A DNA stretch of 51,179 nucleotides from Elusimicrobiota bacterium (GTDB taxonomy: Bacteria; Elusimicrobiota; Elusimicrobia; Elusimicrobiales; UBA9959), in NCBI GenBank assembly GCA_036574205.1, contig JAINCQ010000038.1:1-51179 (forward strand), written 5' to 3'. The position numbers were made by a program. Positions 48,001 through 51,000 of the stretch are shown in pieces. Positions within the stretch are counted from its first letter, which is position 1, and each line of letters opens with the position of its first letter.

Positions 48001-51000
48001 TCTATTTCTTCAGGGCTGGCACCTCTTAAAATAGTCTTTACTGTAACAAATGGAAATTCAACATTTGGAAATAAATCCACGCCAATTCTTAGATAAGAAA
48101 AAATACCTAAGGTTATTATTGCAACTCCAAGCATTGTTGTAAAGACTGGTCTTTTAATAAAAAACTCTGAAAACCTCATAAATTCTCCTGATTAAGAACT
48201 TTTATTGGCGAGTTATTTGAAATTCCATAAAGCCCTATTGTTATTATCTCATCCCCTTCTTTTAAATTTTTAACTTCAATCCAGTCTGTATTCTTTATGC
48301 CATGTTTTATCTCTTTTTCAATAGCGACATTATTCAATCTATCTGCAAGATAAACATATTTTTTCCCCTCTTTCTCAACTATTGCGGAAACAGGAATAGC
48401 TAAAGCCCTTTGAACTTCCTGCAGAATAACATGAGCCTCAGCTATCATTCCAGACTTCAATAAATTTTCTCTGTTTTCTATAAAAGCCTCCACAAGAAAG
48501 GTTCTTGAAAGTTTATCAACAACAGGGCTTACTTTATCTACCTTTGTATAAAAAATTTTATCAGCATAAGCATCAACCTTAATATATACCTTGCTTCCAA
48601 CAGATATTCTGGATAAATATTTTTCCGGGACTTCTATCTGAACCCTGATAACATCCTGATTTACCACAAGGGCTATCGGTGTCATTGGATTAACATCAGC
48701 TCCTTCATCCTGATAAACCCTCCCCACATATCCGCTTATAGTTGAAGGAACCGGAGCGGGTTCATATACAACCCCAACATCGTCTTTTTTAACTAAAGCA
48801 ATAGCATCATCTTTTTTGACAAAATCCCCTTCCCTGACCAGATTCTTTACGAGTTTTCCATTTATTCGCGGGTATATCACAGCTTCATCTTTTCCTTTTA
48901 TATTGCCCGATATTACCAACTCCTCCTTCAGATCTTTCCTTATAACCTTTTGAGTTTGTACATAAAAAACATTTTCATTTTTACTTCCATCTTTCTTATG
49001 GCATGAAACAACCGCAAAAAGCATAAGTAAAATCAAAAAATTTTTCTTCATATCCTATCCTCCTATTCTTCATTAAAGACCTATTGTATAATCAAGATTT
49101 ATAACGGAGATTATATAATCATAAACTGCAGTCAAATACCCCAATCTTGCTGCATTATAAGCAACTGTAGCATCATTTATTTCAAGCTGACTTGCAAGTC
49201 CGTTTTTAAATCTTTCTTCTGTGGCTTTTAAAACCTTTTCGGCATTTTCAACAGAAACCTTTTGACTCTCAATTCTCTTTTCCGCCTCTTCAATAGCAAA
49301 AAGTGATTCCATAATCTCTATTTTAATTTTTCTTTTTATATCTTCTATATTCCTTTCGGCTAACTCAAGATTGTATTCTGCCTGTTTAATTTTTGAAACC
49401 GTTGAAAAACCGTTAAATATAGGCATATTAAAAGAAAGGCCAATAGCAGAACTCCAACCTCTTGTGTTTTCATCCGGAAATTTAGATGTTTCGCTTTGAC
49501 CTGAAAACTGTTTTGAAGCAAATAAACTTATTGTAGGCCAGTGTCCCGCTTTTTCTATTTTTAACTGTTTTTCCGCCATATCTTTGTTTAAAAGGGATAA
49601 TTTATAATCAGGTCTGTTTAAAAGAGCAGTTTTATAAAGTTCTTCAAAAGAATATTTTTTATAATTATAATCAAGTTTTCCAACAATATTTATCTCCTCG
49701 TCTAACTCAAATCCAAGCAGGTTTTTTAAATTCAACACCCCTGTTTTATATAGATTTTCCGCTTTTATAAGAGCAGGTTCATTATTTGAAACCTCAACCT
49801 TCTGTCTTAAAACATTTAGATCGCTTTGAAGACCCTGTTTGTATTTTTCCTCAACCGTCAAAAGATGTTCTTTTGAAATATTTAAAATATCGGTTTGAAG
49901 TTTTAAAAGCTCCTTTGCATACAAAATTGAATAAAAAATTTGCTTCACAGATTTTTTGATAATGTTTTTAATCTGCTTTGTATTTTCAACTGAAATATTA
50001 CTATATATACGAGCCATCTTTATTGCAGTATCAACCTTCCCACCAGCCCATACAACCTGATTTAAATTTAAACCCATTGTATAAACATTCTCCATCCCAA
50101 CTTCCGTTTTTCTTCCCCCAAAAAACGCAAGCGGTTTTTCAATATTTTTTGTATAATTTGCTGAAACTGAAATCTGAGGCCAGGCCGAACCATAATATTC
50201 ATTTATCTTCTCTTTATAAATCCGCTCAGATGTATAAGCATTTAAAACTGAAATATTTTTCTTAAAAGCAATCTCAACTGCTTCATCTACATTTAAATCC
50301 ATAGCCCAAAAATTGAAAGAGAAAAACATTATAATAAAAAAAACACCAAGCCCTTTAATAAAAACATCAATCAACCTGTAAATGCTTTTCATATCCACTT
50401 TTCCACTCATTTTGATTTCAAATATTAAATAAGATATTAAAGACGATATAAATATTGAAATAACTTCTGCAGTATCACTGCCAATCTTTTTACCTTTTAG
50501 ATAAAGATTTTCTACAGCTGCTTTAATTTTAGTCTTATTCTTCTCCCTCACATCCTCAGCCATTTTTCTTAAATAATCCCTTTTCCCAAAATCTATCATT
50601 TTAAAAAAACAATTAACATGAAGTGCATTTTTTGAAAAAAACATATAATGTTTATCAATAATTGCTCTTATAAATTCACTTAACTCACCAAAGGTCTTCA
50701 AATCATTAAATATAGATTCAATCTCTTTTTTCTTTAAATTAAACGCATATTTTACCATCTCATCTTTATCTTTAAAATAATAATATATCACTGGTTTAGT
50801 GACCCCAAGCTTTTTTGCTATATCATCCATTGAAACAGCATCCATACCAGATTGTGAAAACAACTCAACCGCCGTTTCAACTATCTTTTCTCTGGTTATT
50901 TTTTTTGTTTTCATAACTTACCTACCGGTAAGTAAATTATACCAAACAATAATAACAAAAGTCAAATATTTGTAAGATATCTATACATACCTGTCTGCGT

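Follow-up and report, generated by a model that had tools for sequence, protein, structure and literature searches.

A TetR-family repressor and a TolC-type outer-membrane factor in one open reading frame of an Elusimicrobiota RND efflux operon, joined by a signal-peptide-like segment

The fused gene and its operon

A TetR-family repressor and a TolC-type outer-membrane factor are encoded in a single stop-free frame in the window, that is, the whole 51,179-nt contig JAINCQ010000038.1 of an Elusimicrobiota bacterium (GCA_036574205.1), and TetR and TolC likewise share one stop-free frame at 63 of 80 species-level Elusimicrobiota loci. The TetR domain lacks a stop codon of its own, and the two parts meet at a segment that resembles a signal peptide. 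We think it probable that one chain is translated, that the internal signal peptide leads to Sec export and that signal peptidase I cuts after A204, which would yield repressor and channel 1:1. The first-pass annotation had described a 613-aa ORF that joins a complete TetR repressor (HTH at residues 11-56) without a stop to a TolC-family factor reaching residue 612, with HlyD-type and AcrB genes following; rereading of the DNA and matching of both domains bore out each of these points.

Features of the fused gene, its operon and its promoter region in the window
Feature	Positions	Strand	Basis or remark
Fused tetR::tolC ORF	49073..50914	-	613 aa and TAA stop, stop-free frame
TetR-family repressor part, residues 1-187	50354..50914	-	Pfam, MtrR model, AF2, Foldseek
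HTH, residues 11-56	50747-50884	-	Pfam TetR_N
Internal signal-peptide-like junction, residues about 175-204	50303..50392	-	sequence and family geometry
Predicted mature TolC-type outer-membrane factor, residues 205-613	49076..50302	-	Pfam OEP, PDB alignment, Foldseek
Periplasmic adaptor, HlyD/AcrA-type lipoprotein (MKKNFLILLMLFAVVSC...)	48176..49051	-	Pfam HlyD_D23 7.6e-20
RND permease (AcrB family), 1026 aa	45099..48179	-	Pfam ACR_tran 2.6e-270
-35 hexamer TTGACT	50960..50965	-	promoter scan
-10 hexamer TATAAT	50936..50941	-	promoter scan and family alignment
Candidate TetR operator ACTTACC-GGTA-GGTAAGT, 7-nt inverted arms	50916..50933	-	sequence
Candidate operator DNA, predicted target of the TetR part: ACTTACCGGTAGGTAAGT			

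The gene order is tetR::tolC, then an AcrA-like gene, then an AcrB-like gene, all on the same strand. Among the fused loci having enough flank, the AcrA-like gene lies directly 3′ of the fusion in 60 of 61, and an RND gene follows the adaptor in 61 of 61. The TolC part is co-encoded, as outer-membrane factors (OMFs) are, with a periplasmic adaptor and an inner-membrane transporter (the HlyD_D23 and ACR_tran genes directly 3′), and in this conserved adaptor-RND operon the fused gene is the only one for an OMF. The signal peptide of an OMF is expected at the precursor's N-terminus; here the segment is internal, behind 174 TetR residues. The unfused TolC paralogues of the same genome have ordinary N-terminal signal peptides.

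The repressor part is modelled as a complete TetR fold of about nine helices, ligand/dimerisation domain included. Pfam TetR_N matches residues 11-56 (E 2.6e-17; 62.8 bits, cut-off 24), and residues 6-185 align to positions 10-197 of the 205 in the MtrR model. Nine helices are present in the AF2 model (8-22, 29-36, 40-46, 50-71, 78-95, 97-109, 113-135, 146-170 and 175-199), with block pLDDT mostly 75-92, and Foldseek matches full-length TetR chains (6o6p_B, TMt 0.74 over 177 columns of 187; 3ih2, a second whole-chain match, 198 of 201). The HTH residues G23, V27, S28, L36, K40, P41, Y44 and F47 are invariant across 49 fused proteins, as are residues of the pocket. Unfused TetR orthologues stop at the equivalent of ...KGLG. 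A low-sensitivity search of 184 word-sharing candidates found no stand-alone short relatives of the TetR part at E <= 1e-10.

The TolC part, judged by its matches and its modelled structure, is a complete and strongly conserved channel protomer with two tandem OEP repeats. Pfam OEP matches in two stretches, to residue 612 (E 1e-67), PDB TolC chains align to residues 235-612, and Foldseek returns 1ek9_A (E 3.3e-20, TMt 0.81) and 7ng8_A (TMt 0.82). The first residue of mature E. coli TolC, when projected onto the fused protein, falls at about residue 207, near the predicted cut. The NCBIfam TolC family model TIGR01844 matches residues 208-612 at 141.7 bits, under its cut-off of 225.15; we therefore regard the protein, on its profile score, as a general OMF outside that type I secretion subfamily.

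A promoter and a candidate operator stand directly upstream. The hexamers found by the promoter scan score 11 of 12, with a spacer of 18 nt and a TG extension; TTGAC occupies the same position in most fused relatives, and the consensus of 60 anchored loci has tatAAT directly 5′ of the operator. The candidate operator sits between the -10 box and the ATG, and supplies an SD-like AGGT as well (the tetR start in the window has an SD pairing of -7.0 kcal/mol). A palindromic operator at the regulated promoter is what is predicted for a TetR-family repressor, and the element found here has that form. All 60 of the 60 fused loci that could be assessed retain the promoter-operator TATAAT-TTAyyTACCGGTAGGTAAGT-ATG, and among these TACCGGTAGGTAAG occurs exactly in 39, with one mismatch in 11 and with two mismatches in 3. 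Such retention indicates that the repressor half is in use. More broadly, the invariant HTH and pocket residues, the operator in all 60 loci and the near-constant adaptor and RND genes argue that both halves of the fusion are under selection.

The junction and the proposed processing of the chain

The junction reads ...M175-KSIYR-L181(TTG)-IDVFIK187-GLGVFFIIMFFSFNFWA204|M205-DLNVDEA, in agreement with the signal-peptide-like stretch and FWA/MD end described earlier. A basic n-region, M175-K187, overlaps the last TetR helix, and G188-A204 form the hydrophobic core and c-region, with a predicted signal peptidase I site at A204|M205. Residues 195-202 are the sole low-confidence stretch inside the AF2 model. 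Across the family, an n-region of the form R/K-x-L-K is followed by a core of typically 13 residues and by AxA-type ends (RAGA, KAQA or SAGA), and a median of 18 residues separates the last basic residue from the mature N-terminus (62 sequences). The window has K187, a 17-residue core and an F-W-A end, in which A at -1 fits and F at -3 is atypical for signal peptidase I. Uncharged residues run for a median of 16 positions in the family (13 in the commonest form) and for 18 in the window. By this measure the hydrophobic segment has the predicted length of a signal peptide and not of a transmembrane anchor, so a lasting membrane tether of the repressor appears doubtful in most relatives. An adaptation of the core to a signal-anchor role was looked for and not seen: in hydrophobicity, fused cores (median 2.79) are indistinguishable from the N-terminal signal peptides of unfused relatives (2.71; p = 0.68).

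These features are consistent with the following scheme. The operon tetR::tolC-acrA-acrB would be transcribed from a single sigma-70 promoter whose -10 box abuts the conserved palindromic operator. Ribosomes would begin at the tetR ATG (50914) and read through all 613 codons. The TetR domain (1-187) would fold in the cytoplasm, the segment 188-204, on emerging, would work as a Sec signal inside the chain, oriented N-in and C-out, and the inner membrane would be crossed by the TolC part. A cut by signal peptidase I after A204 would leave a normal mature TolC, which would travel to the outer membrane as the partner of the AcrA and AcrB proteins encoded downstream. What is left on the N-terminal side would be a TetR repressor with the used signal peptide still attached as a tail at its C-terminus. 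This product would repress its own operon by binding the operator, whether it stays at the membrane or the tail has first slipped out or been trimmed, possibly by RseP- or SppA-type proteases encoded in the genome. Repressor and channel, both coming from one cut chain, would then be made 1:1. The genome does encode a signal peptidase I (TIGR02227, 144.1 bits), and also an M50 site-2 protease and SppA.

This polyprotein scheme fits the conserved geometry of a cleavable signal and the loss of the tolC start codon seen in aligned relatives. We infer that full-length translation is the productive route, that the chain is cut and at which site, and what becomes of the TetR fragment. The first-pass annotation had proposed insertion and cutting as one of two options, with a membrane-tethered repressor and a mature channel in 1:1 ratio; the signal-peptide geometry and the start loss now speak for that option, while the cleavage itself, the equimolar yield and the tethered repressor keep the standing of predictions. 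With a folded 187-residue domain ahead of its signal peptide, the chain would presumably depend on co-translational (SRP-type) targeting. Such targeting usually favours more hydrophobic cores, and those of the fused proteins are no more hydrophobic than the unfused ones. The F at -3 of the window (F-W-A|M) is likewise unusual for a signal peptidase I site, and making a repressor and a structural channel in equimolar amounts is an odd economy.

If the chain is cut, the fused gene would be a natural bacterial polyprotein with two products three compartments apart; Sec and signal peptidase would handle a signal peptide behind a folded 187-residue domain, and a regulator would be fixed 1:1 to the structural protein under its control. 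A more elaborate proposal, which we consider quite unlikely, is that the internal signal peptide is a regulatory device: the repressor would be born tethered and then be freed or short-lived after the action of signal peptidase and an RseP/SppA-type protease, so that autorepression reports channel export or the state of the membrane or of Sec. Were this so, it would be a bacterial counterpart of eukaryotic membrane-to-DNA signalling by regulated proteolysis.

Origin of the fusion and alternative readings

Comparison of fused and unfused relatives makes the loss of a stop codon the most likely origin of the fusion. In the unfused genome G066, the orthologous tetR ends ...KE-TAA-AAG-ATG-AAG-AAA and tolC (MKK...) follows in the same frame, with only TAA-AAG between. 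The tolC genes of unfused relatives start ATG-AAG, with the SD embedded in the end of tetR. Given the in-frame pair of G066, the xMK or xLK that precedes the fused core can be read as the former Met-Lys of tolC. Its first codon, at the 53 loci compared, is CTG in 17, ATG in 11, CTC in 8, TTG in 2 and another non-start codon in 15. It is thus still ATG or TTG in just 13 loci and a non-start codon (CTC, GCC, CTT, TTA, TTT and others) in 23, and the class of this codon has changed at least 10 times on the tree. These states form an evolutionary series, from in-frame neighbours through stop loss to decay of the inner start codon, and make the fusion a testable case of neutral ratchet versus adaptive fusion.

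About 94 database clusters of 498-661 aa hold both Pfam domains, at 32-66% identity, and together with the 63 of 80 loci they show a wider conservation among relatives than had been reported. A tree of TolC places the fused genes in a single clade (support 96), whose 68 rows comprise 64 fused genes and 4 unfused ones nested among them. In two independent derivatives that have lost TetR (L014 and P0094), the start codon of tetR still reads in frame into the signal peptide and TolC, a point in favour of the polyprotein scheme. Secondary splits occur in the clade as well: L041 shows an ATGA overlap together with a signal peptide of its own, and L052 has a frame change in an A-run. Open frames of 659-686 aa in several family-f2 genomes were tried as extra fusions and rejected, as their DNA encodes ordinary unfused TolC of about 455-460 aa.

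It is possible, and we hold this tentatively, that the product is processed in the same way but that the fusion has no regulatory meaning and persists as a neutral ratchet. The stop between in-frame neighbours would have been lost, signal peptidase would have separated the products, and the internal start, now useless, would have decayed; reversal would be improbable because a new stop and a new start are needed together. The G066 arrangement is one mutation short of fusion, the fused signal peptides show no adaptation relative to unfused ones, and rare reversions are seen (L041). The splits in L041 and L052 suggest that the separate form works as well, which is what neutrality would allow. 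Such fusions arise sporadically: a second TetR-TolC fusion (G109, L101), unrelated to this one, stands alone, and none of its relatives at 38-41% identity is fused. Against this, a single large clade has kept the fusion among sequences as little as 32% identical, and reversions in it are very rare, a record that fits neutrality and advantage alike. The ratchet addresses why the fusion persists, not how it works, and overlaps with the polyprotein scheme.

We consider it unlikely that two products are made, with TolC and an ordinary signal peptide translated from an internal start (in the window M175 or L181; in relatives a near-cognate CTG or what was once the start of tolC) and the full-length chain being a tolerated by-product or the sole source of TetR. 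On such an account the frame would stay open because the tolC start lies inside or adjoins the end of tetR. In favour of this, unfused relatives show that TolC was ancestrally a separate protein with a Met-Lys signal peptide of its own, the window has in-frame ATG codons at 169 and 175, GTG at 173 and TTG at 181, and the former start is ATG or TTG at 13 and CTG at 17 of the 53 fused loci. The best in-frame starts of the junction also have a median anti-SD energy of -5.0 against -4.1 in background windows, although this whole-junction scan is weak and uninformative, and its automatic pick of the downstream-gene start is unreliable. However, none of the junction positions has a start codon that is conserved in the family. 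There is no in-frame ATG, GTG or TTG within 20 codons 5′ of the core in 33 of 62 sequences, nor within 28 codons in 22, and the former start has become a non-start codon in 23 of 53.

The ribosome-binding signals point the same way. Real starts of this organism carry strong SDs: the three of the operon in the window pair at -7.0, -10.2 (the adaptor gene) and -7.4 kcal/mol, against 0.4 to -3.3 for the internal candidates, and tetR starts in the family have a median of -7.0 kcal/mol, with 82% at or below -6. An SD is absent at all 13 retained ATG/TTG codons (median -2.8 kcal/mol, 0 of 13 at or below -6), and the conserved Met of helix 8 was rejected as an internal start on the same ground (median -2.4 kcal/mol, 0 of 40 at or below -6). 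A conserved internal SD in the AGAR codons was also rejected, the Gly codon being GGA in 8 of 53 loci against a background of about 11%. Of the 18 promoter-like sites found in the region, against 12.0 +/- 3.6 expected, none lies at the junction (50300-50420). The earlier suggestion that TolC is made from the internal TTG (L181) is therefore not supported: neither this codon nor the nearby ATG and GTG has SD pairing, and the family has no conserved internal start. Some internal initiation may still take place at the 13 ATG/TTG and 17 CTG loci.

It is highly improbable that the chain stays uncut as a full-length, ToxR-like inner-membrane regulator with a periplasmic TolC-like domain that never reaches the outer membrane. 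The layout, in which a DNA-binding domain at the N-terminus is followed by one hydrophobic segment and a C-terminal part in the periplasm, does resemble that of anchored one-component regulators, and the window has an 18-residue uncharged run. Yet the stable transmembrane helix of about 20 residues expected of a ToxR-like protein is not found, the run being short with a cleavage-type end; the typical 13-residue core and AxA-type ends of the family are the design of a cleavable signal. Moreover, the TolC part is a complete, strongly conserved protomer from the only OMF gene of an adaptor-RND operon, and the mature TolC N-terminus lies close to the cut, leaving no linker to span the periplasm.

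That a stop was lost, or the frame shifted, through an error of sequencing or assembly in a MAG can be practically discounted: every fused record found is a MAG and the sole single-contig genome examined (G066) is unfused, but the same open frame is seen in 63 species-level genomes that were assembled independently, GC-poor and GC-rich, and in about 94 protein clusters from several sources. Given this recurrence, the fusion is not an assembly error.

Relation to known systems

Repressors of the TetR family control RND efflux operons in AcrR/acrAB, MtrR/mtrCDE and TtgR/ttgABC. The Elusimicrobiota operon resembles these in its TetR_N HTH with an all-helical ligand domain, in a palindromic operator that overlaps the pump promoter, and in a pump made up of an RND permease with its adaptor and a TolC-type channel. 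The repressors of the known systems have genes of their own, usually transcribed divergently, whereas here the repressor is the N-terminal third of the channel precursor, with no stop between. The unfused Elusimicrobiota operons (G066/L089, L041 and L073) have an orthologous TetR with the TKPVLYYYF motif, the same gene order and the same type of operator (ACCGrTAGGTAA); unlike in the fused genes, a stop ends their tetR and tolC has its own ATG-AAG start.

Processing of one bacterial ORF into two mature proteins has a precedent in the FbcH cytochrome b/c1 precursor of Bradyrhizobium, which is cut at an internal signal-peptide-like sequence during membrane insertion, both products belonging to one inner-membrane complex. 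The fused gene shares with FbcH the single ORF, the internal signal-peptide-like cut and the two mature proteins, here predicted from sequence, and differs in that the products would be a cytoplasmic DNA-binding regulator and an outer-membrane channel. Regulators of the ToxR/CadC type have a true transmembrane helix that signal peptidase does not cut, an OmpR-type winged helix and a periplasmic sensor. Both layouts put a DNA-binding domain at the N-terminus, in the cytoplasm, ahead of one hydrophobic segment and a part in the periplasm; the present protein has instead a TetR fold, a signal-peptide-like segment and a C-terminal channel bound for another membrane.

In eukaryotes, signal peptidase is reported to cut iRhom2 and so free a cytosolic N-terminal fragment that takes part in gene regulation (PMC7618786). 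The proposed release of an N-terminal cytoplasmic regulator by signal peptidase is alike; iRhom2, however, is an unrelated protein of the ER, and the other product of its cleavage is not known to serve as a second functional protein. Literature searches found no paper on a TetR-TolC fusion, which the excerpts of PMC4827864 and PMC8277102 do not mention, and none, in the library searched, on a bacterial polyprotein with an internal signal peptide. Database records name the fused genes only 'TolC family protein', a label by which automated annotation hides the operon's repressor.

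The fused frame and its conservation

Reading of the DNA gave a single stop-free frame of 613 codons in which a TetR-type repressor runs into a TolC-type channel. Pfam placed TetR_N (E 2.6e-17) at residues 11-56 and a pair of OEP repeats (E 1e-67) behind it, up to residue 612, while the NCBIfam MtrR model aligned to residues 6-185 and the TolC subfamily model scored 141.7 bits over 208-612, short of the 225 it requires. Modelled with AlphaFold2 from 49 fused homologues, the protein had a mean pLDDT of 87.8 and contained nine TetR helices, the ninth (175-199) continuing directly into the hydrophobic segment, and a complete TolC protomer beginning at residue 205; residues 195-202 were the sole low-confidence stretch within the chain. 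Foldseek hits to this model included E. coli TolC (1ek9_A, TMt 0.81, E 3.3e-20) and TetR chains along their whole length (e.g. 6o6p_B, TMt 0.74, 177 columns). Both halves are regular members of their families, except that the signal peptide of the TolC half is not N-terminal. The first-pass annotation had described one ORF for TetR and TolC with HlyD-type and AcrB genes behind it, and this description stands, since the frame, domain matches, structure model, junction and downstream genes (for an HlyD-type lipoprotein and an AcrB) all agree.

Features of the window and of related loci
Feature	Sequence	Coordinates	Strand
Fused TetR-TolC gene	window	49073-50914	-
AcrA/HlyD-type adaptor gene	window	48176-49051	-
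AcrB-type RND permease gene	window	45099-48179	-
GC-rich hairpin	window	50985-51056	
Frame change between TetR and TolC	L052	1277-1420	
TetR-signal peptide-TolC fusion	L101 (genome G109)	310-2178	
TetR-signal peptide-TolC fusion, second copy	L102 (genome G178)	251-2134	
Deletion derivative	L014	2776-4314	
TolC frame with three TetR helices	L061	2707-4230	

We fetched 80 related loci, one genome per species; TetR and TolC matches lay within one stop-free frame in 63 and not so in 17. In a FastTree tree computed from the TolC halves, a single clade of 68 rows (support 96) gathers the fused genes: 64 of its rows are fused, the window counted, and 4 are unfused; the remaining 13 unfused rows fall outside. 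About 94 protein database clusters of 498-661 aa carry both Pfam domains at 32-66% identity. The named clusters are all from Elusimicrobiota MAGs, and NCBI labels the fused proteins only 'TolC family protein'. When 251 genomes from the phylum were scanned, 13 belonging to the window's own family, its own genome counted, gave matches that ran end to end in a single frame; two more fused genes (in G208 and G228) were seen only on reading the DNA. Where flanks were long enough, an adaptor gene follows the fused gene in 60 of 61 loci and an RND gene in all 61. The recurrence of the open frame excludes an assembly artefact in practice, and the earlier argument that conservation speaks against sequencing error is upheld by the 63 loci and by clusters down to 32% identity. 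The fused ORF is thus real and conserved.

The junction and the synthesis of TolC

The junction reads M175-KSIYR-L181-IDVFIK187-GLGVFFIIMFFSFNFWA204-M205-DLNVDEA. TolC chains in the PDB, which begin at the mature N-terminus, align through residues 29-405 to query residues 235-612, which projects mature residue 1 to about residue 207. Across the fused family the junction has a basic AR-x-L-K, a core of 13 residues in its commonest form (AALVILLLSPLLA) and an end such as RAGA, KAQA or SAGA, and the mature N-terminus lies a median of 18 residues beyond the last basic one (62 fused sequences). Core hydrophobicity (median 2.79) does not differ from that in unfused relatives, whose signal peptides are N-terminal (2.71, p = 0.68). 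Signal peptides of the window's unfused TolC paralogues end in ...DLSKA/IELTL and ...IQAFA/ENLTL, parallel to ...FNFWA/MDLNV in the fused protein, where the F at -3 is atypical for the predicted cleavage site. In its basic residues, core and AxA-like ends the family has kept the layout expected of a Sec signal peptide that can be cleaved; the signal-peptide-like character first noted for this junction is less clear-cut in the window itself, with K187, a 17-residue core and F-W-A.

Two routes to TolC had been offered, an internal start at the TTG of L181 or insertion and cutting of the full chain. If TolC were made from an internal start, that start and its ribosome-binding site should be conserved; neither is. 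The former start, the codon of the ancestral tolC Met in the x-(L/M)-K before the hydrophobic core, could be anchored in 53 loci (another 11, the window included, lack the anchor motif) and is CTG in 17, ATG in 11, CTC in 8, TTG in 2 and some other non-start codon in 15; its class (start, CTG or non-start) has switched 10 times or more along the tree. Of 62 fused sequences, 33 lack an in-frame ATG, GTG or TTG in the 20 codons upstream of the core, and in 22 of the 62 the nearest in-frame start, usually the conserved Met of TetR helix 8, is at least 29 codons off. Anti-Shine-Dalgarno pairing has a median of -2.4 kcal/mol before the helix 8 Met (0/40 at or below -6) and of -2.8 kcal/mol before the 13 retained ATG/TTG codons (0/13), against -7.0 kcal/mol before the tetR start of the fused family (82% at or below -6). 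In the window, the candidates M169, V173, M175 and L181 gave 0.4, -2.4, -3.3 and -0.3, and the three real starts -7.0, -10.2 and -7.4, so that the proposed TTG start finds no support. Internal initiation is the main mechanistic rival, and the ATG, TTG or CTG at the former start of 30 of the 53 loci would permit some of it there; however, with neither signal conserved across the family, we regard it as unlikely. On the simplest view, TolC is synthesised as the C-terminal portion of a full-length chain. Two deletion derivatives, locus L014 and database protein P0094, have independently lost most of TetR in frame; both retain an operator-like sequence, the tetR start codon and the first 22 or 47 TetR residues, still in frame with what follows, the signal peptide and TolC. 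This favours TolC being made from the tetR start, although two cases are suggestive at most. L014 shares its MAG with a full fused copy, L006, whose TetR may still control it.

Mature TolC begins within a few residues of the hydrophobic segment, which leaves no room for a linker across the periplasm; as TolC must reach the outer membrane, the two halves would have to be cut apart. We consider a polyprotein processed by signal peptidase to be the best explanation of the fused gene, and probably the correct one. The internal signal peptide would insert N-in, C-out, the TolC part would be exported via Sec, and signal peptidase I would cleave after A204. This would leave TetR with the spent signal peptide as a tail, which might slip out of the membrane, be trimmed or tether the repressor there. 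The genome has genes for signal peptidase I, an M50 site-2 protease and SppA. Against such processing, a signal preceded by a folded domain should require co-translational targeting, yet core hydrophobicity is not raised, and it is unusual for a repressor and a channel to be produced 1:1.

The window's system resembles other TetR-controlled RND operons but differs in that repressor and outer-membrane factor form one precursor, a new feature of this operon; the accessible part of the literature searched held no description of a TetR-TolC fusion. The nearest known mechanistic precedent is the Bradyrhizobium FbcH cytochrome b/c1 precursor. Anchored regulators of the ToxR type have the topology in common with the fused protein, but not the cleavage or the fold. 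The proposed mechanism would be unusual for bacteria, is unreported as far as we found, and is directly testable.

Operator and repressor half

Upstream of the fused gene lies a sigma-70 promoter (TTGACT, 18 nt, TATAAT; score 11/12). In the window, ACTTACC-GGTA-GGTAAGT directly follows the -10 TATAAT and is itself followed by ATG. The layout tatAAT-TTAyyTACCGGTAGGTAAGTTTT-ATG was found in all 60 assessable fused loci, despite wide GC differences among the genomes, and TACCGGTAGGTAAG is exact in 39 loci; 11 others have a single mismatch and 3 have two. The HTH residues and several ligand-domain residues are invariant across 49 fused proteins. From this conservation of both operator layout and protein residues, we infer that the TetR part is a working autorepressor that binds the conserved operator.

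In a subclade of five loci (L042, L043, L046, L049 and L053) the operator reads ACTTACCTACCGGTAAGT, its central 4 nt inverse in orientation, and the leader behind it is longer and contains a true Shine-Dalgarno sequence, GGAGAA; in all of these except L042 the tblastn match starts ~690 nt upstream of the point where the fused ORF begins. Distant unfused tetR-tolC operons (L063, L064, L067, L068, L075, L077 and L080) carry a different, perfect promoter palindrome, TTAATGACTGAC-n3-GTCAGTCATTAA, which points to another TetR lineage. Just upstream of the window's operon promoter, near the contig end, a long GC-rich hairpin with a perfect stem stands amid AT-rich DNA (as RNA, MFE -46.6 kcal/mol, z = -8.6 vs shuffles); it could be the terminator of the upstream gene or a repeat element.

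Origin and persistence of the fusion

An unfused orthologous tetR, with the TKPVLYYYF motif and a ACCGATAGGTAA operator, is present in G066, a genome from the same order assembled as one contig. This tetR ends in ...GLKEYYKE-TAA, then come AAG and ATG-AAG-AAA, the start of tolC (MKKALLIVTIICSS...); the two genes share a frame, and the tolC Shine-Dalgarno sequence (AAGGAA) is located within the final tetR codons. Loss of one stop from such an arrangement would give exactly the fused layout, and the x-(L/M)-K before the hydrophobic core would then descend from the Met-Lys that once opened the TolC signal peptide. In other unfused relatives TetR ends in ...KGLGG or KGVG and a stop, equivalent to the window's ...FIKGLG, and TolC starts with an ordinary M(K/R) signal peptide overlapping the tetR stop.

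Within the fused clade, L041 has truly reverted to two genes, which overlap at ATGA, and has acquired a new signal peptide. At L052 the TetR and TolC frames differ, the change lying within seven consecutive A's; a sequencing error may explain it, or else a recent split or a slippery site. L101, a singleton whose relatives are all unfused, and L102, a distant paralogue, are also single-ORF fusions with just 24-27% identity to the window's protein and apparently independent, which indicates that TetR-TolC fusions arise repeatedly. Only the window's type has persisted through a large clade. Such persistence may reflect a neutral ratchet and not adaptation: once the inner start has decayed, reversal requires a stop and a start together. 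At L061, the TolC frame retains the last three TetR helices before its signal peptide, without the TetR N-terminus, and a different TetR gene is located upstream.
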